Of a stretch of DNA of 64,000 bases, positions 335 through 45,818 are shown in pieces. The notes below the pieces were generated by a model. The model was given only the letters and a program-made list of their open reading frames with translations. It searched no databases and was not told the DNA's origin. Numbering within the stretch: the first letter of the stretch is position 1; every line of letters begins with the position of its first letter. The translations under genes were made by a program, and so were the position numbers. Source of the stretch: a virus; IMG/VR virus record IMGVR_UViG_3300017963_000239, positions 17,880-81,879 of that record. One strand, 5' to 3'.

Positions 335-375
335 GTGGTCGTAGCTCAATCGGTAGAGCGTCTGGATGTGGCCCA
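335..375 (+). pseudogene. 5' fragment of disrupted resident tRNA-His(GTG)
   Basis: GTGGTCG-TAGCTCAATCGGTAGAGC-G-TCTGG-ATGTGGC, then breaks off; matching 3' piece at 884-910. Confidence 0.8.
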
Positions 376-395
376 AAAGTGTTAGGCTCACAACC

Positions 396-824
396 ATGCC
401 AGCGAAGACCAAGAAGTGTGGGAAGTGCCAGAAGCGCAAGCCTGTGGATCAGTTTTACTGGAAGGACAAGGCGCGGGGGACGAGGCATTCGTACTGCAGG
501 GCGTGTTTCGCCGCGCGCCACAAGACTTACTACCAGGAGAACAAGCAGTACTACTTGGAGAAGAAGGCGCGCTGCAAGCAGAGGCTCCGCGAGTATGTGA
601 ACGAACTGAAGCGCGCGCCGTGTACGGACTGTGGCCGGACGTACCCGCCCTACGTGATGGACTTTGATCACTTGAATGGGGAGGAGAAGGGGGGCCTCGT
701 GGCGCATTTGGTGGCGCAGGGGCAGGTTCGGAGAGCCAAAGAAGAGATAGCTAAGTGCGAGCTGGTATGCGCCAACTGTCACAGGATCAGAACGCACGAA
801 AGACGTATGGAGGTCGTAGCCTAA
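396..824 (+). CDS. HNH endonuclease with Zn-finger motifs (His cassette)
   Basis: CxxC motifs, DFDHL...KCELVCANCHRIRT; stop codon lies within the following tRNA-His. Confidence 0.85.
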   Translation: MPAKTKKCGKCQKRKPVDQFYWKDKARGTRHSYCRACFAARHKTYYQENKQYYLEKKARCKQRLREYVNELKRAPCTDCGRTYPPYVMDFDHLNGEEKGGLVAHLVAQGQVRRAKEEIAKCELVCANCHRIRTHERRMEVVA

Positions 825-881
825 CGGTTAAGGCACAGGATTGTGGCTCCTGGTATGCCGGTTCGATTCCGGTCGATCTCC
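809..881 (+). tRNA. tRNA-His(GTG), replacement copy
   Basis: G-1:C73; GAGGTCG/CGATCTC acceptor; CAGGA-TTGTGGC-TCCTG. Confidence 0.9.
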
Positions 882-883
882 CC

Positions 884-910
884 GGTGGTCGAGTCCGCTC
901 GGTCACCCCA
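884..910 (+). pseudogene. 3' fragment (T arm, acceptor strand, CCA) of resident tRNA-His
   Basis: GGTGG-TCGAGT-CCGCT-CGGTCAC-C-CCA; CGGTCAC pairs with GTGGTCG at 335. Confidence 0.75.
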
Positions 911-993
911 CTACGCCCCTGGAGCCGGGTACTCCGGCGGGGCCAACAAGGAGAAGAAGAGAGACAAGGGTGTGGCAACCCAGGCAGGTAGCC

Positions 994-2940: not shown

Positions 2941-3014
2941 AGGGGTATAGCTCAGCTAGGGAGAGCAGCGGATTCCAAATCCGCAGGTCGGGAGTTCGAT
3001 TCTCTCTGCCCCTG
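2941..3014 (+). tRNA. tRNA-Trp(CCA)
   Basis: GCGGA-TTCCAAA-TCCGC; full cloverleaf. Confidence 0.9.
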
Positions 3015-3018
3015 CTAC

Positions 3019-3068
3019 GGGCCAGTAGCTCAGTAGGTTAGAGCGTCCGCCTGATAAGCGGGAGGTCG
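3019..3068 (+). pseudogene. Truncated resident tRNA-Ile(GAT) lacking T arm and 3' acceptor strand
   Basis: GGGCCAG-TAGCTCAGTAGGTTAGAGC-G-TCCGC-CTGATAA-GCGGG-AGGTCG, then non-tRNA sequence. Confidence 0.8.
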
Positions 3069-3093
3069 TTTATTCTAACCTGGACAATTTCTT

Positions 3094-3165
3094 GGACTGC
3101 AATGCTCTGGTTGAGCTACGATGCCTGATAAGCATCGTGGCGGGGTCCAATTCCCCGGCGGTCCA
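3094..3165 (+). tRNA. Atypical tRNA-Ile(GAT), replacement copy
   Basis: GGACTGC/GCGGTCC acceptor; GATGC-CTGATAA-GCATC; T loop TCCAATT; A at position 8. Confidence 0.75.
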
Positions 3166-3168
3166 CCG

Positions 3169-3744
3169 ATGAGCAAACAACGCAGGGATTCCCAGGGCCG
3201 TCTTCTTCTAGAATTTCGGTGTCCTTGTGGGAAGAGGTTCTGGGCACGCCCCAGACCTCCGAACAAGTCGGGGAAGCGGTATTGTAGCTTGGTGTGCTAC
3301 GGGAGGCTTAGGGACTTTTCTGGATCTAAAAACCCCAACTGGAGGGGAGGGTCGTTCCAGAGTGGCAAGGGTTACTGGTATGTTCATATGCCAGATCATC
3401 ACCGAGCGATGAAGAATGGCTACGTCAAGAGGGCGGATGTTGTAGCCGAGAAGAAGATCGGGAGGAAGTTGTTGCCTAACGAGGTGGTGCACCACGAAGA
3501 TTCAGATCCGAGCAACGACAGCCTAGACAACCTAGTGGTCAAGGACTCCCTAGCGCATATCAGAGAGCACGCAGTGAAGAGGCGAAAGCCTAAGAAGTCA
3601 AAGAAGGCTCGAAAGTCTGTTTGTTGGCCCTCCGATAGCGTGCTTTTGGAGATGGCTAAGACCATGACACAGCGCCAAATGGCAACGCTTCTTGGGTGCA
3701 GTCAGCCCGCCGTATTCTATCGCCTGCACCGTTCTCGTCGTTGA
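3169..3744 (+). CDS. HNH endonuclease with C-terminal HTH (Ile cassette)
   Basis: NPNWRGG, EVVHHEDSDPSNDSLDNL, TQRQMATLLGCSQPAV. Confidence 0.85.
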   Translation: MSKQRRDSQGRLLLEFRCPCGKRFWARPRPPNKSGKRYCSLVCYGRLRDFSGSKNPNWRGGSFQSGKGYWYVHMPDHHRAMKNGYVKRADVVAEKKIGRKLLPNEVVHHEDSDPSNDSLDNLVVKDSLAHIREHAVKRRKPKKSKKARKSVCWPSDSVLLEMAKTMTQRQMATLLGCSQPAVFYRLHRSRR

Positions 3745-4030
3745 GCCCTGAGCAGCTTCCGCACATCATCTGCGGACCGGCTGCTCAGGACGAGGCGCAG
3801 CTGCGTGGAAAGCTCCCGCATGCGCGCGCAGACGTCGCACTGGCAGCCGGGTTTGGTCTGTTGGTGCTCGTTCCAGATCTTCAGCTCTTGCTCTTCGACG
3901 GCAGTCATGCTGCCATCATGCCTGAGAGCTGAAGCTCATCTTGCACGACGCCGGTCGATTTCCGGCTGGAGGTAGACATGAAGAGGTCGATGCCGCCGTA
4001 GCCCCTCCTTCTGCGTGAAGGAGGTGGCCT

Positions 4031-4132
4031 ATGTGTCGCTACTGCCAAATCGTCTGGTCCCTGCTGGGGCCGGGCTATCTCTGTCGCCCTTGCTGGAGGA
4101 AGAAGTATCGGAATGCGAAGAAGGGTCGGTAA
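4031..4132 (+). CDS. 33-aa basic CxxC-CxxC peptide
   Basis: AAGGAGGT RBS; MCRYCQIVWSLLGPGYLCRPCWRKKYRNAKKGR. Confidence 0.55.
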   Translation: MCRYCQIVWSLLGPGYLCRPCWRKKYRNAKKGR

Positions 4133-4161
4133 GACCGGCTGAGGGCTAGCTGCCCTCACAC

Positions 4162-4191
4162 GGGCCTGTAGCTCAGCTGGGAGAGCGCTTC
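4162..4191 (+). pseudogene. 5' half of disrupted resident tRNA-Ala
   Basis: GGGCCTGTAGCTCAGCTGGGAGAGCGCT identical to the start of intact tRNA-Ala at 5462. Confidence 0.85.
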
Positions 4192-4207
4192 GTGCTACAC
4201 TGGCAAA

Positions 4208-4699
4208 ATGCTGGAAGTGGTTGTGAGGTACGAGAAACCTGGAGATCCGTATGTCCGTGTTCGGCTGTCGGATGGCCGGGTCGTGCGTGAGCACAGGTTC
4301 ATCATGGAGTGCAAGCTAGGTCGGAAGCTCTCCCCTAGCGAGCACGTCCATCATAAGGACTTGAACCCCCGGAACAACGAGGAGAGCAACTTAGAATTGA
4401 AGTCGCGGGCGGATCACTGCCGCCTGCACCGCCCTGTGGCGCGGAAGGTTAGACTGCGCTGTCCTACTTGCGGGTGTTGTTTCGAACGCACTGCCAGGTA
4501 TGTCAGGTCCAAGAAGAAGCTAGGCCAGCACAGTTTCTTCTGCGGTCGTAGCTGCCGGGGACCTAGGGGCGGAGAAACAACACGAAAGGTCACCGCGCAT
4601 GGGTCTCGCGGAGGCTATTTGAGGGGCTGTCGGTGTGCTGAGTGTCGAGAGGCGCAGGCGCACTACATGCGCGAGTACAGATCAAAGGGGCTGTGGTGA
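4208..4699 (+). CDS. HNH endonuclease (Ala-GGC cassette)
   Basis: REHRFIME..LGRKL...EHVHHKDLNPRNNEESNLE; C-terminal HG..GCRC..C module. Confidence 0.9.
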   Translation: MLEVVVRYEKPGDPYVRVRLSDGRVVREHRFIMECKLGRKLSPSEHVHHKDLNPRNNEESNLELKSRADHCRLHRPVARKVRLRCPTCGCCFERTARYVRSKKKLGQHSFFCGRSCRGPRGGETTRKVTAHGSRGGYLRGCRCAECREAQAHYMREYRSKGLW

Positions 4700-4757
4700 A
4701 AGGGGATCACGCAACCATGGCATGGTTGTATTACGGGTTCGAATCCCGTCAGCTCCA
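4687..4757 (+). tRNA. tRNA-Ala(GGC), replacement copy
   Basis: GGGGCTG/CAGCTCC with G3:U70; CAACC-ATGGCAT-GGTTG. Confidence 0.9.
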
Positions 4758-4774
4758 CTAGGGACCTTCCGGTC

Positions 4775-4812
4775 GGCGGGGGTCGGGGGTTCGAGTCCCC
4801 CTAGGTCCACCA
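4775..4812 (+). pseudogene. 3' half of disrupted resident tRNA-Ala
   Basis: GGGTC-GGGGG-TTCGAGT-CCCCC-TAGGTCC-A-CCA; pairs with GGGCCTG at 4162. Confidence 0.85.
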
Positions 4813-4927
4813 TCGGCCCCTCTGAGGGCAGCTTAGGCGTCAGGGCAGCGCGACGAACGACCCAGTACTCGGACAGCTGCAAGTCGAGCTGCGGGGCATC
4901 CTCCTGACGGGAGGCCCCGCCGATGAC

Positions 4928-5143
4928 CTACTTCTTCTCGGGCTCGGCGGTCGCAGCGGCCGACGCGGTGGCGCTGGCTGTCGCTGTGGCGGTCGCCGTA
5001 GCAGTCGCTTCGGCAGTCGCGGTGCTGGTCTCTGCGGCGGCGGTCGACGTCTCCTTGGTGGGGACGGTTTCTTCGGCCTTCTTCTCGTCGCAGGCGGACA
5101 GGAAGCAGATCGCGATCACGAGGGTAGCTGCTAGGGTCTTCAT
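4928..5143 (-). CDS. Small lipoprotein with Ala/Thr-rich tail
   Basis: Signal peptide with lipobox LSAC; ATATAT low-complexity region. Confidence 0.7.
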   Translation of the reverse strand: MKTLAATLVIAICFLSACDEKKAEETVPTKETSTAAAETSTATAEATATATATATASATASAAATAEPEKK

Positions 5144-5280
5144 CGGATTTCTCCTTGCGGTGGAGGTTATACTTCACACCCCGGAGATCGCGCAAAGGGG
5201 ATTGTCAGAGTGGCCATACGTCCATGTGGACGCATACGCCTACTTGACTATCGCTTTTCTATAGGCTAATTCTTGAGCCC

Positions 5281-5460
5281 ATGGCGACGAAGAAGGTGAT
5301 TGTCGACTTCGACGAGGACATCCAGAACCTGCGCGACCCCGAGACAGGCCGTTATGTCGAGCTGAACTCCGTTGTGGGAGCCAAGGTCGTAGGGGTGGAG
5401 CGGGGTGAGGACGACCAGCTCGTGTTGATCCTCGAAGGGGTCGAAGACGAAGAAGACTGA
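5281..5460 (+). CDS. Hypothetical acidic 59-aa protein
   Basis: Open frame with genome-typical codons behind a TTGACT promoter-like motif. Confidence 0.6.
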   Translation: MATKKVIVDFDEDIQNLRDPETGRYVELNSVVGAKVVGVERGEDDQLVLILEGVEDEED

Positions 5461-5461
5461 C

Positions 5462-5537
5462 GGGCCTGTAGCTCAGCTGGGAGAGCGCTGCGTTCGCAAT
5501 GCAGAGGTCAGGGGTTCGATTCCCCTCAGGTCCACCA
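5462..5537 (+). tRNA. tRNA-Ala(CGC)
   Basis: CTGCG-TTCGCAA-TGCAG; G3:U70; CCA. Confidence 0.9.
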
Positions 5538-5630
5538 GCTCCGGAGCCAAGTCTGTGGGCTCAGTAGCTACACGCGGAGTGACGCCCGCAGCCGGAGTTA
5601 GGAGCCTCGCCAGCGCAGCGCGGCTCTGTT

Positions 5631-5660
5631 GGGCTCATAGCTCAGATGGGAGAGCGCGGC
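5631..5660 (+). pseudogene. 5' half of disrupted resident tRNA-Ala(TGC)
   Basis: GGGCTCA-TAGCTCAGATGGGAGAGC-G-CGGC. Confidence 0.85.
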
Positions 5661-5698
5661 ATATTGCAACTGGAGATCGTCGCTGATACTGTACCTGT

Positions 5699-6088
5699 AT
5701 GGGGTACAAGTTCGTTAAGGCTCCCTCTAGCTATCCGGGCAGAACGTATCGCTGGGGCAACCGAGTTCTGGAGCACCACTTGGTATGGTGGGAGAACACA
5801 GGACAGGTCGTTCCGGAAGGGTACGTTGTTCACCATCTGAATGAAGACAAGGAGGACAATCGTTTCGGGAACCTCGCGCTGAAGAAGCGTGGGGAGCACA
5901 CAACGGATCACCAATTGAAGGATCCGCCTGTGGCGTTGGTGTGCTCTTGGTGCGGGAAGAAGATCGAACGTAGCTCTAGAGATGTTCGAAGCAAACGCAA
6001 GCAAGGGCAGAGTCGTTTCTTCTGTTGTTCCGCTCACGCAGCCGCTGCGGGTTGGTCGAGCAGAAGAGCGAGAGGGGTCATCGTCTAA
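5699..6088 (+). CDS. HNH endonuclease (Ala-TGC cassette)
   Basis: LEHHLVWW...VVHHLNEDKEDNRFGNL; CxxC...FFCC. Confidence 0.9.
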   Translation: MGYKFVKAPSSYPGRTYRWGNRVLEHHLVWWENTGQVVPEGYVVHHLNEDKEDNRFGNLALKKRGEHTTDHQLKDPPVALVCSWCGKKIERSSRDVRSKRKQGQSRFFCCSAHAAAAGWSSRRARGVIV

Positions 6089-6145
6089 TCGGGAGGACGC
6101 TAGCCTTGCACGCTGGTAATACGGGTTCGAGTCCCGTTGGCTCCA
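6074..6145 (+). tRNA. tRNA-Ala(TGC), replacement copy
   Basis: GGGGTCA/TGGCTCC; CTAGC-CTTGCAC-GCTGG. Confidence 0.9.
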
Positions 6146-6250
6146 CTGCGGCAACGTGTGGTCGTCCGCAGGGCTTGACCCGTCCCTGCTAAGTGATCAC
6201 GCAAGATCCCTAACGGGTCGCACAAAGCCGGAAGGCGTGGGGACGCCGCG

Positions 6251-6296
6251 CCTTGCAAGCCTGAGGTCGGGAGTTCGATCCTCCCTGAGTCCACCA
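6251..6296 (+). pseudogene. 3' half of disrupted resident tRNA-Ala(TGC)
   Basis: CCTTGCAA-GCCTG-AGGTC-GGGAG-TTCGATC-CTCCC-TGAGTCC-ACCA; TGAGTCC pairs with GGGCTCA at 5631. Confidence 0.9.
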
Positions 6297-6743
6297 ATGC
6301 AGACGTTCCTACCCTTTCCGGACTTTCAGAGATCTGCCTCTGTGCTCGACTGGCGGCGTCTGGGCAAGCAGCGCATCGAGGCGAGGCACATCGTGGAGGT
6401 GCTTCTAGGCATCAAGCCTCACAGTCGTTACCGGAACCACGCGGCGGTCCGCATGTGGCGAGGCTTCGGACACTTCTTGTGTTCCTACGGCGTCGCCATC
6501 TGCCAGGAGTGGCGTGGGCGTGGCTACCGAGATCAGCAGCTCGAAGCCTTCCAACGCCTGCGGAAGCTCGCCGAGCGCGAGGATCAACACGGAACGCCGC
6601 CTTGGTTTGGAGACGCTGCGTTCCACGCGGCGCACCGAGCTGCTTTGCTCGCCAAGGCTCCGGAGTGGTACGGCCAATTCGGATGGCAGGAGATCCCGCT
6701 CGTGGACTACGTGTGGCCTGCCGGTGTAGCCTATGGCGCATGA
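6297..6743 (+). CDS. Pyrimidine-dimer DNA glycosylase-like (MSMEG_6728 family) protein
   Basis: MQTFLP.PDF..SA..LD.RRLGKQR.EA, HAAVRMWRG, PPWFG...FH..HR..LL.K.P.WY. Confidence 0.8.
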   Translation: MQTFLPFPDFQRSASVLDWRRLGKQRIEARHIVEVLLGIKPHSRYRNHAAVRMWRGFGHFLCSYGVAICQEWRGRGYRDQQLEAFQRLRKLAEREDQHGTPPWFGDAAFHAAHRAALLAKAPEWYGQFGWQEIPLVDYVWPAGVAYGA

Positions 6744-7648
6744 GCACCATCGACGTCGTTCAGCTAGTCAAGGACGGGAAGGCGAAGTTCGAGTGGGCGG
6801 ACGTGCTGTCGACGCACGAGGACAAGGAGCTGACGATCAGCGTCTTTAGGGACGCGATGAAGTTCGACGACATCCCGGCGTTGACATGGGACTTCAAGCC
6901 GATTCCGGGAAACGACCAGATCTACAACGGTGTACGGCTGCCAGCTTCGGCTGACCAGTTGCAGCAGATCGCCGACGTGCTCGGGTGCATGCTGCTGACC
7001 CCGAAGGTCGTAGATCTCATCTGGCTCCAAGCGCAGCTCAAGTTCAACCCGGTCATCAACGACGGCCCCCCGCGGTACAACATCGTGGCAATCTCCAACA
7101 TCAACGATGTCCACGACCTCATTCAGAAGAAGATCGAGGGAGCTGGCGGTGACGACGGCTACAAGCTCATCGCCTGTGTGGGCAAGTACTGGGTGCTTTG
7201 CAATGCGCTTGGGCAGATGGTCGTGGTCCACGGAGATCTGCAGGCATTCAACTACGGATGGCCTGATGCGAACGCTCCTACCTCACGCCGCGGTGTCACG
7301 TCGGGCGTGAAGGTATGGCAGAACCTAGCGGGAGCCCACAACAAGCTGCACTGGGATCCATCGCAGACCATTCGGCTGATGTTCCAGTGGGCCTGGTTGA
7401 AGGTGGGCGATGCGGATCCCGTTCAGATCCATCTGCATGACGTGGCCTCCGATCCCGAGCTGGCGCCACTGTTGCACCACGAGGGTGAGCTGAAGGTGTT
7501 CCGGCAGTCGGGGGTGCCCGAGCCGAAGGGCGAGGTGCAGGAAGACGGAACCATTCTGATGCCCGAGATCATCATCTACGGCGCTCCTCCGAAGCACCCG
7601 ATGGTTCCCGTCCGCGAGGGCGGTCATCGAGTGAAGGTGATTTCTTAG
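6740..7648 (+). CDS. Hypothetical protein
   Basis: Long ORF, ATGA overlap with upstream gene. Confidence 0.7.
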   Translation: MSTIDVVQLVKDGKAKFEWADVLSTHEDKELTISVFRDAMKFDDIPALTWDFKPIPGNDQIYNGVRLPASADQLQQIADVLGCMLLTPKVVDLIWLQAQLKFNPVINDGPPRYNIVAISNINDVHDLIQKKIEGAGGDDGYKLIACVGKYWVLCNALGQMVVVHGDLQAFNYGWPDANAPTSRRGVTSGVKVWQNLAGAHNKLHWDPSQTIRLMFQWAWLKVGDADPVQIHLHDVASDPELAPLLHHEGELKVFRQSGVPEPKGEVQEDGTILMPEIIIYGAPPKHPMVPVREGGHRVKVIS

Positions 7649-18507: not shown

Positions 18508-18853
18508 GGGCTCGATCGGTTTCGACGTGGAGGAAAGGAAAGATTCGCGTGTAGGCAGCGCTCGACCTGCCTTGATCAATCGAGCAATTTGCAGTTGCCA
18601 ACGACAACAGCACCCCTCTGGCCGCGAAGGCGGCCTGAGCGCTGGGCGGGTAGGAGTCCGAGTACCCCGCAGGCGCCAATACCACACGGACTGTGCTCGG
18701 GGAGGTTGGCACCGCCGATGCCCGAGCGAGACTTTCGGTGCTGGACAGGCTGGAGAGACGGCCAAGCCCTGCTGTGAGGGTAGATCAGCTACGCACGTGA
18801 ACGAGGATCTTGACGGAACTCGGCGGACCAGGGTTCGATTCCCTGCGGGTCCA
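18508..18853 (+). ncRNA. ssrA: tmRNA; tag (A)NDNSTPLAAKAA at 18597-18638
   Basis: 5' GGGCTCGATCGGTTTCGAC; 3' GGGTTCGATTCCC...GGGTCCA with G3:U70; ANDN...AA reading frame. Confidence 0.92.
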
Positions 18854-18906
18854 CGAAGTCTCCATTGAGCATTGCAGGGAGCGTCCATAAGAGGTACATT
18901 GGTCGA

Positions 18907-19518
18907 ATGGCTCTTGTGGACGTGACCTGCGCTCAATGCGGGAAGAAGGTGAAGAAGCCGGTGGGAGAGGTGAACAGGTCGGTCAGGCTAGGGCGCAAGT
19001 TTTTCTGTGGCTCTGTCTGTTCCGGGTTGTTCAGCGGACAAGCTCGGGCTGCGGTGGAGGTCAAGAAGACGTGCCCTCATTGTGGGGAGGACTTCGTGAC
19101 GACGACCAAAGCACGAGCCAAGAAGTTCTGTTCTAGATCCTGTGCCAGTAAGGGGAGCATGTCCGAAGAGCGCCGGGAGGCGCAGCGTCTGGCGGGCCTC
19201 GCGCACGCGCAGAATCTTCTTTCCCCTGCGGAGACCTTGAAGCAGCGCGAAGCCTGGAAGTACGCAGCGCTGGAGAAGGTGTTGCGGGAGGCGGATCGGG
19301 ACTTCGAGTTCGAGTATCAGGTCGGTGGGTTCGTGTTCGACCTGGCTCTTTTGGACGAGAAGGTTCTGGTAGAGTTCGACGGCCCTCACCATCGAGGGGA
19401 CGAAGCAGAACGAGACAAGCACAAGGAGAAGATGGCGAAGAAACGAGGATTCGTCGTGGTCCGTCGAGAAGTAAAGGCGGCCTCGGTGATTTCCCCAGAC
19501 ACGATCAAGGAACTCTAG
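18907..19518 (+). CDS. Zn-finger plus DUF559/Vsr-like endonuclease (tmRNA cassette)
   Basis: CxxC/FCS repeats; FEYQVGGFVFDLAL...VEFDGPHH...D..K. Confidence 0.75.
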   Translation: MALVDVTCAQCGKKVKKPVGEVNRSVRLGRKFFCGSVCSGLFSGQARAAVEVKKTCPHCGEDFVTTTKARAKKFCSRSCASKGSMSEERREAQRLAGLAHAQNLLSPAETLKQREAWKYAALEKVLREADRDFEFEYQVGGFVFDLALLDEKVLVEFDGPHHRGDEAERDKHKEKMAKKRGFVVVRREVKAASVISPDTIKEL

Positions 19519-19546
19519 TGGGGTTCGATTCCCCGCAGGTCCACCA
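19518..19546 (+). pseudogene. Orphan 3' end (T arm, acceptor strand, CCA) of a tmRNA/Ala-type RNA
   Basis: GTGGGG-TTCGATT-CCCCG-CAGGTCC-ACCA, a variant of 18828-18853. Confidence 0.8.
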
Positions 19547-22275: not shown

Positions 22276-22305
22276 CGGGATGTGGCCTAGTCTGGTTAAG
22301 GCGCC
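22276..22305 (+). pseudogene. 5' half of disrupted resident tRNA-Pro
   Basis: CGGGATG-TGGCCTAGTCTGGTTAAGGC-GCC, then breaks off. Confidence 0.8.
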
Positions 22306-22331
22306 AAGCTTTTGCTAGGCTAGGCTACATC

Positions 22332-22841
22332 ATGTGGAAGCTGCGGGGTCGGAAGCGGGAGAGTAAAGGGCTGTCAGGGTACGAAACAGTCTGTCTTCCG
22401 GAGCACCCGAAGGCGGACGGTCGTGGTCGTGTGTATCTCCATAGGGTTCTGATGGAGAACCACTTAGGGCGCGTGTTAGGGGAAGATGAAGTTGTCCATC
22501 ACAAGAATGGTGACCCCCGAGACAATAGGATCAAAAATTTGGAGATCCTATCGAGAGTGGACCATGCCGCGTTCCACGGGAAAGCCCGACGCGGTCGGGT
22601 CGAAGAGTGCGAGTGCGCGAATTGTGGGACTCGGTTTGAGCGCCTTCGGAGGAAGCTTCAGGGGCAGCGAACCTTTTGCAGTAGGCGCTGTGTGATGCTT
22701 TTCTACAAGCCCCGGCCGCCTCGTACACCGAGGGTCGTAGAGCACGGCACGAACTCCATGTACAAGAACCACGGCTGTCGCTGTTTTGACTGCCGCCGTG
22801 CTCATGCCGAGGCCATGAAGTCGTACAGAAACGGGGTGTAG
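22332..22841 (+). CDS. HNH endonuclease (Pro-GGG cassette)
   Basis: LHRVLMENHLGR.L..DEVVHHKNGDPRDNRIKNLE; HG..GCRC..C module. Confidence 0.9.
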   Translation: MWKLRGRKRESKGLSGYETVCLPEHPKADGRGRVYLHRVLMENHLGRVLGEDEVVHHKNGDPRDNRIKNLEILSRVDHAAFHGKARRGRVEECECANCGTRFERLRRKLQGQRTFCSRRCVMLFYKPRPPRTPRVVEHGTNSMYKNHGCRCFDCRRAHAEAMKSYRNGV

Positions 22842-22908
22842 TTCAGCTTGGAAGAACGCCGCGCTGGGGGCGCGGAGGCCGGAGGTTCAAATCCTCTCAT
22901 CCCGACCA
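22832..22908 (+). tRNA. tRNA-Pro(GGG), replacement/restored copy
   Basis: CCGCG-CTGGGGG-CGCGG; CCA. Confidence 0.9.
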
Positions 22909-42540: not shown

Positions 42541-43567
42541 GAAAGCGGATCTTCTAGGACGCCGATTTGGGCGGCTCCTTGTGGTGGCTGCAGCACCCAA
42601 TCAGGGTAGGTGCACGGTTTGGGAAGTGCGGTGCGACTGCGGGGCCACGAAAGAGGTGCGCACGGATAGTCTGCGCAGCGGTAACACTAGCTCTTGTGGT
42701 TGTCTTGTAGGTCAGGGGATGAGGAAACACGGGGAGGCTCGCAAGACCGCTGAGTACACAGCGTGGCAACTGATGAAGCAAAGAGCGGGGGCGTCCAAAG
42801 GGCGCATCTGCGTAGCTTCTCGCTGGAAATATTCCTACGGGCACTTCTTGGAGGACATGAGGCGGAAATCAGATCCAGACGCCACTTTGGATCGTATCGA
42901 TTCGGATGGGCACTATGAGCCGGGGAACTGTCGCTGGGTGTCTCGAACGCAGCAAGCGCAGAATATCCGATCGAACAGACTCCTAGAGCACCAAGGGGAG
43001 ATCAAGTGCTTGACGCAGTGGGCGCGAGAAGTTGGATTGGCAGTGACTACAATATCGGGACGTTTGGGGCGTGGGTGGTCGGTGGAGCGAGCGCTGGAGA
43101 CGCCGCCGACTCATGGGACCTTCAAGCGGAAAGGTTCGCTGAAAAACGAGTACAGCGCGGAATACTCGACTTGGTCGCAGATGAAAGCTCGTTGCTACAA
43201 CCCAGACCACAAGAATTTCCCTACATACGGAGGGAGCGGAGTGAAGGTTTGCGGGCGCTGGAAAAAGTCGTTTGAGTGTTTCTTGGCAGACATGGGGCGC
43301 AGGCCCTCGGCAAAGCACTCTCTCGATCGAATCGACGTGCGGAAGGGCTATTCGCCTGAGAACTGTAGATGGGCCGACGCACGAACGCAGCAGCGCAACC
43401 GAAGCAACAACCGCCTCATAACTTTTGAAGGTCAGACTCGGTGCCTTCAAGAGTGGGCAGAGCGTCTTGGTATTGATCATCGCGTGATACGATCTCGCCT
43501 GCAACGGGGCTGGGACGAAGCTGTCGCGCTTACCACTGAGGTGTCCAATGGCTCTCGCATCAGTTAA
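42533..43567 (+). CDS. Tandem-domain HNH endonuclease (baseplate cassette)
   Basis: Two copies of EY..W..MK.R...RW..S...FL.DM...LDRID...Y.P.NCRW....Q..N. Confidence 0.9.
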   Translation: MPKKADLLGRRFGRLLVVAAAPNQGRCTVWEVRCDCGATKEVRTDSLRSGNTSSCGCLVGQGMRKHGEARKTAEYTAWQLMKQRAGASKGRICVASRWKYSYGHFLEDMRRKSDPDATLDRIDSDGHYEPGNCRWVSRTQQAQNIRSNRLLEHQGEIKCLTQWAREVGLAVTTISGRLGRGWSVERALETPPTHGTFKRKGSLKNEYSAEYSTWSQMKARCYNPDHKNFPTYGGSGVKVCGRWKKSFECFLADMGRRPSAKHSLDRIDVRKGYSPENCRWADARTQQRNRSNNRLITFEGQTRCLQEWAERLGIDHRVIRSRLQRGWDEAVALTTEVSNGSRIS

Positions 43568-45818
43568 CCGTGTTCGTTTTGTCGGTTTTGACTTCGACAC
43601 CCACGTGGATGATCTGCGAGCGCGCTTGCAGGTCAAGTTCGCAGCGTACTACAACGACTTCGCCCTGGCGTCGTTGGGCATGATGCTGCTCGACATGATC
43701 GCCTACGGGCTCGACTCGCTCAGCTTCTACCTGGATCGTCGTGCTACCGAGGTCTACCTTACGACGGCGCGGACTCGTAAGGGCGTCGCCCGTATCGCCC
43801 GCCAGCTCGGCTACAAGATGGGCGGCGCAGTAGCGTCCTCGACAGACCTGACAGTCAGCGTTGTCACGGCTCAGTCCTATACGGTGTCCATCCCCGCTGG
43901 ATTTCAGTTCGAGGGGCCGAATGACTTGATCTTCGAAGCCGGCGAGGCGGTAGAGTTTTCTCCGGCGGAGCAGACTGCGGGGACCTCGAAGCTCGTTCCT
44001 GTCTATGAAGGCGAGTCGGTGTCTGAGACGATCACCTCGGACGGTACAGCCAATCAGGTGTACGAGCTAACGCGTTTGCCGGAGGGGAAGAACGTGGCTT
44101 CCGGCTCTGTCGAAGTTTCTGTGGATGGGGTCTCCTTCAAGGAAGAGGACTTTCTCAAATTCGAGGAGACCGATCAGTACGAGGTAGGGTACAACGACGA
44201 TCCTCCTACCGTGCGGTTCGGGGATGGCACCGCGGGGAACATTCCAGCCACCGGCGCTTCGATTGTTCTTTCCTACGTAGCTACGTCGGGCAAGGCGGGC
44301 ATCGTGGGCAAGGAGACCATCCAGGCCGCCGTCACGCCGTTGGTCGTAGGAGGCGATACAGTCGACTTGTCCATCAACAACGTGAAAGGGTCCTCAGGCG
44401 GAGACGACTTGGAGTCGTTGGACCACGCCAAGTCGTTCGCTGGCCGCGTGTTCAACTCTCGCCGGGTGGCAGTCACGAGAGAGGACTACGACGCGCTGGC
44501 GGGTTCGTATGCCGACCCTGTGTATGGTCGTGTGGCGGTGGCGCAGGCCATCTCGTCGCGTTCGGCGGCCACGGACCTCGTGCTGCAGGACGCCATCTTG
44601 GCTATCACCAGCGCGTTGGAGGGGGCGGTAGACACCATCCGGGATGAGATCTCCGACGCGACGACGGCCACCACGGGCACGTTGAACCAGATCTTGGACT
44701 TCTCCTCCACGATCTCTTCGGCGCTGGACAACATCGTCACGGCGGTGGGGACCATAGACACCAACGCAGCTGCTTTGCTTTCAGGCGTCCGAGCCAACCG
44801 GAATCTGTCGTTGGAGGTCGACGTCGATGCCGACACTTCGAAGACCCACGTCACGGACGGTAAGGCGCTCGTGAATGGCTTCACGGTAGGCAGCCCTACG
44901 GTGATCACTACGGTGGATCGAGATGCCGTTTTGGCCTACTTCAACTCGATCGACACGTTGCAGGACTCCATCGTGTCTAAAGCAGCGACGATGAAGGGGT
45001 CATCCGATACACAGATTGGGGCCATCGGCCTGGTGAACGACGAGATCGACAAGATCGGTCTAGCCAAGACGTCGCTGCAGATCGACGGCTCCGACTCCTA
45101 TCTGAAGAGCGCCGAGGACTCCCGAGCTTCCATCGACGTCATCGTGGGCTTCTACGACAGCGCCGACCCCACATCGAGCACGGGACTGTTCCGGACTTTC
45201 AACTTCACGTTGGAAGGCGTAGCAGACGATCTCGACCCCAGCGAGGCGGGCGCCACGTCCACCACGGTCTCGGAGAACTTGACCATCATCGACGAGCACG
45301 TGGACAAGATCTTGTCTGCTGACTGCAAGGCCAATCTCGTGACGGTGCCCATCCTGGTTCGTGACGCGGCAGGCTTCTACACCGCGCCTAGCAACGGTCT
45401 CGTGGGGTCATTGGAGGACTACCTGAACGTCCGGAAGGAAGTCACTCAGACGGTGGAGGTGGTGTCGGGGGGCAAGTTCTTGATCTACCCCACTATTGCA
45501 GTACGTGTCGGCGTGAATCAGGGCTACTCGCTGGAGCAAACGAGGACCGCGGTGGAGACGGCGATCGACGGGGTGCTGAAGGACCGGGAGTTCGGTGACT
45601 CGCTGTACGTGTCCGATCTCATCCAGGTCGTTTTGGGCGTGGAAGGGGTGGGGTTCACCAACGTCACGATCTCCGGCTACACGACTCTGCTCGACTCCAC
45701 GGTGCAGACCGCTAAGCTGGATTCTGAGGGCAATTTGATCATCGAGACCTCAGAGGTCATCACCAAGACGCCGGGAGCCGTGACGGTTACACCCGAAGCC
45801 ATTCAGGTGGAGGCTTGA
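43548..45818 (+). CDS. Baseplate J / gp6-like wedge protein
   Basis: DFD, YL.TA, LGY, RFGDG..G..P, GG.D.ES, R.AVT..DY. Confidence 0.88.
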   Translation: MALASVNRVRFVGFDFDTHVDDLRARLQVKFAAYYNDFALASLGMMLLDMIAYGLDSLSFYLDRRATEVYLTTARTRKGVARIARQLGYKMGGAVASSTDLTVSVVTAQSYTVSIPAGFQFEGPNDLIFEAGEAVEFSPAEQTAGTSKLVPVYEGESVSETITSDGTANQVYELTRLPEGKNVASGSVEVSVDGVSFKEEDFLKFEETDQYEVGYNDDPPTVRFGDGTAGNIPATGASIVLSYVATSGKAGIVGKETIQAAVTPLVVGGDTVDLSINNVKGSSGGDDLESLDHAKSFAGRVFNSRRVAVTREDYDALAGSYADPVYGRVAVAQAISSRSAATDLVLQDAILAITSALEGAVDTIRDEISDATTATTGTLNQILDFSSTISSALDNIVTAVGTIDTNAAALLSGVRANRNLSLEVDVDADTSKTHVTDGKALVNGFTVGSPTVITTVDRDAVLAYFNSIDTLQDSIVSKAATMKGSSDTQIGAIGLVNDEIDKIGLAKTSLQIDGSDSYLKSAEDSRASIDVIVGFYDSADPTSSTGLFRTFNFTLEGVADDLDPSEAGATSTTVSENLTIIDEHVDKILSADCKANLVTVPILVRDAAGFYTAPSNGLVGSLEDYLNVRKEVTQTVEVVSGGKFLIYPTIAVRVGVNQGYSLEQTRTAVETAIDGVLKDREFGDSLYVSDLIQVVLGVEGVGFTNVTISGYTTLLDSTVQTAKLDSEGNLIIETSEVITKTPGAVTVTPEAIQVEA

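Follow-up and report, generated by a model that had tools for sequence, protein, structure and literature searches.

A tRNA-Ala gene of a presumed phage that holds an HNH nuclease gene and a complete tRNA-Ala(GGC): a probable homing cassette with a replacement tRNA

The subject of this work is a tRNA-Ala gene at positions 4162-4812 of a 64,000-nucleotide stretch of viral DNA (the window; bases 17880-81879 of the 81.9-kb IMG/VR virus record IMGVR_UViG_3300017963_000239, which is rated about half complete). The gene is broken, and between its 5' stub and its 3' piece lie, in this order, an HNH endonuclease gene and a whole tRNA-Ala(GGC). An initial annotation, made from the letters of the sequence, had described this nesting and it stands: the insert is not an intron, and the same design recurs at other tRNA genes of the genome and in other phages. 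We propose that the locus is probably a homing-endonuclease cassette with a replacement tRNA, whose nuclease would cut tRNA genes of the resident type, whose spread would proceed by repair that copies the unit, and whose inner tRNA would be immune to the nuclease and functional. The parts of the locus, together with the intact gene that serves as comparator, are as follows.

4148-4166, no strand assigned: left arm of an inverted repeat (AGCTGCCCTCACAC with the opening 5 nt of the tRNA), matching 4815-4833 at 89% complementarity over 19 nt
4162-4189, plus strand: 5' stub of the resident tRNA-Ala, comprising the acceptor strand, the D arm and the anticodon stem up to its second nt (blastn, canonical layout)
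4208-4699, plus strand: HNH endonuclease gene, 163 amino acids, with an I-HmuI-like N-terminal/catalytic part and Cys-rich C-terminal modules (Pfam HNH_3)
4687-4758, plus strand: complete cassette tRNA-Ala(GGC) with G3:U70, A73, no encoded CCA and a 4-nt variable loop (ARAGORN; Rfam 57.3 bits)
4781-4812, plus strand: 3' piece of the resident tRNA-Ala, comprising the end of the variable region, the T arm (4785-4801), the acceptor strand (4802-4808) and ACCA (4809-4812)
4815-4833, no strand assigned: right arm of the inverted repeat (GGCCCCTCTGAGGGCAGCT), beginning 2 nt past the ACCA
5462-5537, plus strand: intact resident-type tRNA-Ala(CGC), the comparator (ARAGORN; Rfam 66.9 bits)

The 5' stub, laid out as GGGCCTG TA GCTC AGCTGGGA GAGC G CT, is identical to positions 1-28 of the tRNA-Ala(CGC) gene at 5462-5537 (28/28, blastn E 6e-11 in the 64-kb window), in agreement with what had been read from the sequence at the outset, and it matches the canonical bacterial-type 5' half as well as it matches Ala(CGC). 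The 3' piece ends in TAGGTCC-ACCA at 4802-4812, also as first read, and agrees with positions 45-76 of the Ala(CGC) gene at 28/32, the four differing positions including a compensatory change in the T stem; a T-arm scan returned a perfect arm, GGGGG-TTCGAGT-CCCCC, at 4785-4801. The description of the broken gene as near-identical to Ala(CGC) is thus true of its 5' part only. The two ends still fit each other, as GGGCCTG of the stub and TAGGTCC of the 3' piece pair at 7/7 positions (five Watson-Crick and two G-U pairs), including the alanine identity pair G3:U70, a score that random 7-mers of the window reach in 0.2% of trials.

An anticodon arm is recognisable on neither side of the insert, the 3' piece being T arm, acceptor strand and ACCA only. 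The identity of the stub to Ala(CGC) stops at position 28 because isoacceptors diverge from there; the true breakpoint is bounded between position 28 and the start of the open reading frame (ORF). The split had been placed at the anticodon arm; the stub reaches 2 nt into the anticodon stem, and the supposed 3' half has no anticodon arm. With the resident anticodon arm lost, the anticodon of the broken gene can no longer be known, and its earlier designation as an Ala(GGC) that could be reconstituted is without basis.

The outer flanks of the two ends are complementary to each other at 17 of 19 positions, the left arm of the repeat consisting of 14 nt of leader and 5 nt of stub. Complementarity between leader and trailer scores 13 here as compared to 7 or less for every other tRNA (about 50 in the genome), and the core 10-mer TGAGGGCAGC occurs in the window exactly only at 4149-4158 (minus strand) and 4823-4832 (plus strand). 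The helix closes both the minimum-free-energy (MFE) and the centroid fold of 4130-4855. As such outer-flank complementarity is unique in the genome, we take the stub and the 3' piece to have once been the two ends of one unit. The bracketing repeat may have been a processing stem of the gene before it was broken, may serve as such a stem to this day, or may matter as a repeat at the DNA level; its left arm is also half of a local hairpin, so that the repeat is equally readable as a 13-nt direct repeat. Just 5' of this hairpin stops a 33-codon ORF (4031-4132) with two CxxC pairs (MCRYCQ...CRPCW), possibly a small zinc-ribbon protein, with no family match.

The inner tRNA keeps the acceptor pairs G1-C72, G2-C71, G3-U70 and G4-C69 as well as A73, and differs in the D and anticodon arms, which the comparison of stems with the 5462 gene confirms. 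Its D stem is GTGA/TCAC as compared to GCTC/GAGC in the 5462 gene, its anticodon stem CAACC/GGTTG as compared to CTGCG/TGCAG, and its variable loop 4 nt rather than 5 nt long, leaving 47 of 74 positions identical (64%). The cloverleaf is present in the MFE structure of the whole region (4130-4855). The record has no GGC isoacceptor besides the 4687 gene, and its one UGC isoacceptor is the tRNA of another cassette described below; the sole status of the 4687 tRNA fits a working role for it, as far as the isoacceptors of an incomplete record can suggest one. Both alanine cassette tRNAs have the T arm ACGGG-TTCGA(A/G)T-CCCGT and the short 4-nt variable loop in common, and the stubs, the 3' pieces and the 5462 gene have in common a canonical D arm and a 5-nt variable loop. 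Since the shared features split two ways, we distinguish two lineages of alanine tRNA, one resident and one borne by cassettes. A search of IMG/VR with the 17-mer of the cassette tRNA's anticodon arm returned two contigs, both chance matches in coding sequence without a tRNA.

The stop codon of ORF 4208-4699 lies 13 nt into tRNA-Ala(GGC). Its product matches Pfam HNH_3 with 30 bits (cut-off 24.8) and PHROG HNH families down to 8.5e-15, and in the same two collections it shows HNH_3 only, with no GIY-YIG catalytic domain. The 81.9-kb record has eight members of this nuclease family, namely this ORF and seven paralogues. Six of the eight were aligned, with 26-41% identity to ORF 4208-4699; the catalytic His and Asn columns (H49, N61) are invariant in all six, so that the catalytic motif of HNH enzymes is in place, and the Cys-rich C-terminal module is common to four of them. 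The AlphaFold model of the 163-amino-acid protein (pLDDT, the predicted local distance difference test score, 84.7) has I-HmuI (1u3e) as its best structural match, with a Foldseek probability of 0.97 and a VIA-align Z of 6.9 (root-mean-square deviation 3.2 over 77 residues; next entry Z 4.0), the superposed part being residues 1-78. The match came from the fold search; sequence search of the protein against solved structures gave zinc-ribbon noise only. A Bacillus phage is the source of I-HmuI, a strand-specific nickase encoded in an intron. I-HmuI also cuts DNA that already carries its gene, and such enzymes can nick occupied and empty alleles alike.

The arrangement is repeated within the genome. 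Five HNH_3 paralogues stop 10-36 nt inside tRNA genes, namely Ala-GGC, Ala-TGC, Arg-CCG, Pro-GGG and, upstream of the window, Arg-CCT. A sixth member of the family, ORF 366-824, which has no Pfam match and is found with the paralogue profile at 8e-34, likewise stops inside tRNA-His. A 5' tRNA stub precedes five of these six tRNA-ending nuclease ORFs. Three of the loci are laid out as follows.

5631-6296, plus strand: Ala-TGC instance, with a stub through TTGCAA (5631-~5670), HNH gene 5699-6088, tRNA-Ala(TGC) 6074-6146 and a 3' piece at ~6240-6296 ending in TGAGTCC-ACCA
335-912, plus strand: His instance, with stub 335-365, nuclease-family ORF 366-824, tRNA-His 810-883 and a decayed 3' piece ending in CGGTCAC-C-CCA
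22276-22908, plus strand: Pro variant, with a displaced stub (22276-~22315), an HNH gene (to 22841) and tRNA-Pro(GGG) 22832-22908

Stub and 3' piece pair at 7/7 positions in the Ala-TGC instance, which has a counterpart in another phage (locus L056, below). The His instance has the same nesting as 4162-4812, and its stub pairs 7/7 with the His-type C-CCA end. At the Arg-CCG locus the stub is decayed and the pairing is still 7/7. The Pro locus has no 3' piece; its stub, CGGGATG, makes seven Watson-Crick pairs with the 3' acceptor strand of the inner tRNA, as compared to six Watson-Crick pairs and one G-U pair for the tRNA's own 5' end, a pairing that would be expected if a nuclease unit had brought a new 5' part that became fused to the old 3' part. 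Acceptor pairing is the sole link of this stub to tRNA-Pro, its D arm and anticodon loop not being Pro-like. At the Ala-TGC locus the stub (5631-5680) and the 3' piece (6235-6296) both hold the part from the D loop to the anticodon loop, with TTGCAA in each and ~65% identity between them. Such overlapping rather than complementary pieces would suggest more than one invasion event.

Duplicated target pieces are also found at the sides of other nuclease or candidate nuclease genes of the genome, one after the tmRNA and one at 42.5 kb, and there are further oddities. A transfer-messenger RNA (tmRNA) gene at 18508-18854 (tag ANDNSTPLAAKAA) ends in CGGGTCC-ACGA, with no CCA, and is followed by a DUF559 (Vsr-like endonuclease) ORF at 18865-19518 and then by an orphan T arm with CAGGTCC-ACCA (19519-19546) that matches tRNA-Ala(CGC) at 26/27 positions of its 3' end. 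The stretch 18508-19546 looks like the theme of a nuclease with a replacement part at the 3' end of the tmRNA, in the hands of another nuclease family. An orphan Arg-type 5' stub at 12957-12990 (GCCCGCG TA GCTC AACGGATA GAGC...) lies directly 5' of tRNA-Arg(ACG) at 13002-13076, with no nuclease gene between them. A degenerate pair resembling tRNA-Ile(GAT) is found at 3019-3087 (Rfam 35.9 bits, poor T arm) and 3094-3167 (ARAGORN only, T loop TCCAATT); inside the second of these genes begins a 207-amino-acid HNH ORF (3121-3744), whose tail is a helix-turn-helix resembling sigma-70 region 4. Among protein genes, a 12-codon N-terminus, MALASVNRVRYV, at 42497, with a stop two codons later, recurs with many synonymous changes as MALASVNRVRFV at 43549; between the copies (42497-43590) lies ORF 42533-43567, which has no Pfam match and whose HNH label is unconfirmed.

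Relatives of the design occur in other phages. A profile search of IMG/VR with the paralogues returned 80 loci, of which 60 were scanned; 18 of the 60 have tRNA genes within 1.5 kb of the HNH relative, and in eight distinct loci the end of the ORF is within ~30 nt of the start of a tRNA. The Ala-TGC instance has a counterpart in L056, a locus of an 84-kb phage that is rated complete and whose tRNA genes number only two. The order of the locus is a tRNA-Ala stub through TTGCAA, an HNH gene whose product is 53% identical to that of ORF 5699, and a tRNA-Ala(TGC) with the CTTGCAC anticodon loop and 4-nt variable loop of the Ala-TGC cassette in the window; a T-arm element after the tRNA-Ala has 17 nt equal to those at window position 6269. 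The L056 stub and the 3' strand of the working tRNA pair at 7/7 positions, as compared to only 5/7 for that tRNA's own 5' end. In L051, an AT-rich phage, a tRNA-Cys stub through the anticodon loop is followed by an HNH gene and a tRNA-Cys, and the stub is perfectly Watson-Crick complementary to the 3' strand of that tRNA-Cys. In L051, L056 and the Pro locus of the window, the 5' end of the working tRNA is a poorer partner for the tRNA's 3' acceptor strand than is the displaced stub. This is the signature of a nuclease unit that brings a new part of the gene.

Four further loci or locus pairs (L057, L069/L072, L098 and L070) have an HNH gene inside a tRNA gene split at the anticodon loop, with no inner tRNA, and one of them (L069) has a group I match. 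From the locus types observed, three forms occur in the nuclease family: intron-borne ones, ones that arrive with a new gene part and ones that arrive with a complete spare gene, 4162-4812 being of the last kind. Two side observations on L056 may be recorded here. One nt before its tRNA-Ala stub lies its other tRNA (1300-1376), which has the anticodon CGC and G3-C70; under the usual identity rule, G3-C70 in place of G3:U70 would mean no charging with alanine. After each HNH-tRNA-Ala unit, at 4762-4808 of the window and at 2029-2079 of L056, stands an element with an acceptor-like stem, a small CCGG hairpin and a T arm; that of L056 is self-contained and not the partner of the L056 stub, and the folding energies of both are no better than those of shuffled sequences.

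We looked for the locus in its unbroken state. Contigs from two other studies (records 19 and 26) have the HNH gene, the tRNA and the 3' piece contiguous, with 1 to 24 differences. Wetland and sediment samples hold this phage along with strains that diverge from it by 3-5%. Joints at 4188 in contigs lead to other tRNA loci at high depth, which are tRNA-Ala genes of other organisms, and among the contigs, to which this search was confined, none joins the phage's own flanks across the cassette. The downstream protein (6740-7648) has homologues of 64-75% identity; the metagenome and IMG/VR loci that were fetched are at most 57% identical and have no syntenic tRNA array, and the flank pattern of an unbroken tRNA-Ala gene returned nothing in IMG/VR. 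As no cassette-free allele of 4162-4812 was present among the contigs assembled from reads, IMG/VR or the fetched metagenome loci, it is from the anatomy of the locus and from its parallels only that we infer insertion and mobility.

The sequence of events that we envisage is the following. A mobile unit of two tightly packed genes, a free-standing I-HmuI-like HNH gene and a divergent tRNA-Ala(GGC), would have broken a resident tRNA-Ala in or just after the anticodon arm. The nuclease, if expressed, would nick or cut cassette-free tRNA-Ala genes of the resident type in co-infecting relatives, and repair from the occupied allele would copy the cassette into them, the tRNA ends and their flanks providing the homology. 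The cassette tRNA, being divergent in the D stem, the anticodon stem and the variable loop, would not be targeted and would restore the alanine decoding that had been destroyed. Damage would thus be offset at the DNA level by a spare gene, as compared to an intron, whose damage is repaired in the transcript by splicing, and the stubs would be scars.

That the stub and the 3' piece are instead exons, with the HNH gene and the inner tRNA removed by group I self-splicing or some other joining at the RNA level, is in our judgement highly improbable. Such joining does have precedents close by, namely the relatives whose HNH gene sits in a tRNA gene split at the anticodon loop, and L069 gives a match to the Intron_gpI model (36.8 bits, E 4e-6); the helix of leader and trailer could draw both ends together in a transcript. 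The same model, searched with Rfam, gave no match at E up to 10 in 3000-6400, and the distance from the inner tRNA to the T arm, about 25-26 nt, is too short for a ribozyme core, for which there is no room outside the ORF and the tRNA. Between 4187-4205 on the stub side and 4745-4784 on the 3' side there are 38 joins that give a variable loop of 4-5 nt, and none of them has five anticodon-stem pairs together with U33 and a purine at position 37; the best reach four of five pairs, with neither U33 nor the purine, and none recovers an alanine anticodon. ARAGORN was uninformative on these joins as it calls nearly anything with good outer arms. Insertion into the anticodon loop, where bacterial tRNA introns lie (PMC3984707), was rejected too, as the identity to Ala(CGC) ends within the stem instead. 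Complementarity at the locus is between the outer flanks, unlike the pairing of inner ends in archaeal split tRNAs and tRNAs with bulge-helix-bulge introns, a comparison made with no formal search for the bulge-helix-bulge motif.

Two further alternatives concern how the parts of the locus came together. The two outer pieces might be unrelated, the 3' piece being an independent tRNA-like mini-helix (a GGACCT/AGGTCC stem, a small hairpin, a T arm and CCA), perhaps a signal for processing or tagging, and the 5' stub a truncated copy of Ala(CGC). We hold this to be decidedly improbable. It draws on the mini-helix fold that 4762-4808 can adopt, with a mascRNA-model match of 32 bits (below the cut-off of 42.5), on the element of the same topology after the HNH-tRNA-Ala unit of L056, whose acceptor strand does not pair with the L056 stub, and on the many tRNA-like oddities of the genome, such as a minus-strand cluster at ~10.1-10.7 kb. 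The folding energy of the mini-helix, however, is no better than that of shuffles (z 0.63), and the 7/7 pairing of stub and 3' piece with G3:U70, the complementary outer flanks found nowhere else in the genome and the two further nested cases that pair 7/7 in the same genome all argue that the pieces belong together. The main alternative is a scar with no rescue role, in which breaks made by nucleases resident in the array led to illegitimate recombination and segmental copying among similar tRNA genes, and the HNH gene and a neighbouring Ala(GGC) were copied together into another tRNA-Ala gene once, by accident; the unit would then be no site-specific drive, its nuclease could be dead or domesticated, and the inner tRNA would be a mere neighbour. 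We regard this as unlikely, though it has real points in its favour. Orphan stubs exist with no nuclease gene, as in the Arg-type stub upstream of Arg(ACG), the shapes vary from locus to locus (a whole spare tRNA, a chimeric tRNA, or the overlapping duplicated parts of the Ala-TGC unit), the resident gene has lost its middle, the searches described above gave no empty site, and segmental amplification in tRNA regions is a documented effect of SegB (PMC13096335). Other observations speak against a mere scar. At seven or more loci, from three unrelated phages, the tRNA that follows the nuclease gene is the one to which the stub belongs, four of these stubs sharing the downstream isotype by sequence (both alanine units of the window, L056 and L051) and those of His, Pro and Arg being tied to that tRNA by 7/7 acceptor pairing only; the left junction lies just past the anticodon loop in both Ala-TGC cassettes, that of the window and that of L056, despite 53% protein identity; the end of the ORF abuts the start of a tRNA in the eight distinct external loci; and the HNH motifs are intact in most paralogues.

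Several observations nevertheless weigh against the homing cassette that we favour. The intact Ala(CGC) gene at 5462 has the whole 5' part of the presumed target and yet has not been invaded. Of the resident anticodon arm, some 15-20 nt have been lost or scrambled, which is unexpected from clean homing, and the stub, if an old scar, is still 28/28 identical to a neighbouring gene, which fits gene conversion or selection better than neutrality. The 3' piece also folds by itself as a mini-helix, and the similar element of L056 is not the partner of its stub. The start codon of the nuclease gene, ATG at 4208, has no obvious ribosome-binding site, and the paralogues of this genome are just 26-41% identical, so that any spread is old. 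Neither a cassette-free allele nor, among the external loci, a counterpart of the Ala(GGC) cassette was found, the closest HNH relatives (at most 51%) being in other contexts. As to the 5462 gene, its survival had been taken to imply that the nuclease discriminates at the anticodon arm. This conclusion is not compelled, as the genes also differ in the T stem, the T loop and the acceptor strand; on the sequences as they stand, a nuclease that spares the 5462 gene could read anything 3' of position 28, and discrimination at the anticodon arm is one of several possibilities. The gene may in fact not be spared, if by analogy with related nickases it is nicked and repair from a sister copy then leaves no trace. 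The 28/28 identity may itself be a sign of conversion between the stub and the 5462 gene, and the HNH enzyme may be weakly expressed or inactive.

An extended form of the homing-cassette proposal deserves mention, although we consider it improbable. The tRNA array would be colonised by a family of isotype-specific HNH elements, each breaking a canonical tRNA gene and putting in a variant tRNA of its own, with changed stems in the D and anticodon arms and a variable loop of 4 nt. Rather than being parasites only, the elements would spread among phages tRNA alleles that escape both their own nuclease and host defences that cut tRNAs. The stubs with their 17/19 helix would be under selection, as a stem at which processing frees the nuclease mRNA and the spare tRNA from the transcript of the array.

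The source virus looks like a large phage, as judged by a tubulin homologue at 23323-25596 and by tail and lysis matches, also in the window (Pfam, PHROG). The whole record has 49 tRNA genes and a tmRNA (ARAGORN, Rfam); the tmRNA and 37 of the 49 lie in the window's first 30 kb, and several nuclease genes are interspersed among the tRNA genes. Nearly all tRNAs are on one strand, the exception being the minus-strand cluster at 10049-10651, whose tRNA-like genes have anticodons outside normal decoding (Tyr-ATA, Ile-AAT and one undetermined by ARAGORN); a comparable minus-strand set of tRNA-like genes, with tmRNA, is present in two distant relatives, L031 and L040. DNA similarity to GenBank phages is limited to generic tRNA matches. 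Opposite-strand and overlapping ORFs at 4162-4812 have no family matches and offer no rival gene, and a scan for promoters and terminators in 3700-6400 gave no signal above shuffles.

Among the known systems close to the unit at 4162-4812 is SegB, a nuclease directed at tRNA genes that promotes the inheritance of its own gene along with that of tRNA genes nearby (PMC2330249). Like the HNH gene described here, SegB of T4/T6 is a free-standing nuclease gene among phage tRNA genes (PMC2330249; PMC13096335). SegB reads tRNA gene sequence, in a 27-bp site with a T-arm motif, and reshapes the tRNA region, and we propose that the HNH unit does likewise. As SegB is a GIY-YIG enzyme and ours an HNH enzyme, the unit would work alike without being a member of the same group. 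SegB sits between genes and breaks none, and nesting of a gene in its own broken copy has not been described for it; the isotype-matched spare tRNA and the stubs are particular to 4162-4812. The HNH enzymes of group I introns, I-HmuI among them (1u3e; PMC3984707), provide the best fold match; relatives of the HNH enzyme described here occupy tRNA genes at the anticodon loop, and the intron enzymes too are nucleases parked in the target gene. In contrast to these intron systems, 4162-4812 has neither a ribozyme nor a restorable exon junction, and function would be restored, if at all, by a second gene.

Mobile ORFs of fungal mitochondria supply a replacement for the end of a gene, and the native end is displaced (Allomyces atp6; Glomus atp6, atp9, cox2 and nad3; PMC3630166). 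Like 4162-4812, they combine an endonuclease gene with a divergent copy of the displaced part, the native part being left alongside as an unexpressed remnant. The same layout is found here, with the nuclease directly linked to a divergent copy (64%) and a native-type stub and 3' piece flanking them. The Pro locus, L051 and L056 are the mirror image of the fungal ORFs, in that the 5' part is new and the native 5' stub has been displaced. The targets differ, being organellar protein genes attacked by LAGLIDADG or GIY-YIG enzymes in fungi and an RNA gene of a phage here; unlike the fungal ORFs, which bring a part, 4162-4812 brings a whole spare gene, so that both native ends remain. Synthetic cleave-and-rescue drives (ClvR, HomeR), engineered with Cas9 in insects, link a nuclease that destroys an essential gene to a recoded copy that cannot be cut. 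Their likeness to 4162-4812 is an analogy of logic only, with no homology. In the literature, which we covered incompletely, we found no description of a cassette of nuclease and spare tRNA nested in a tRNA gene.

To our knowledge, homing endonuclease genes are thought to persist in essential genes only by way of self-splicing introns or inteins, or else to reside between genes. If our proposal is true, a linked, uncuttable spare inside an RNA gene would be a third solution and a natural counterpart of cleave-and-rescue drives. The genome provides a good test bed, with at least five units at different isotypes, all of one nuclease family, and comparison of the paralogues could map target specificity. 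The proposal, if true, would also explain the tRNA stubs that litter phage arrays, the odd isoacceptors found there and the movement of tRNA genes between unrelated phages, and it would bear on the counter-defence of phages against host systems that cut tRNAs.

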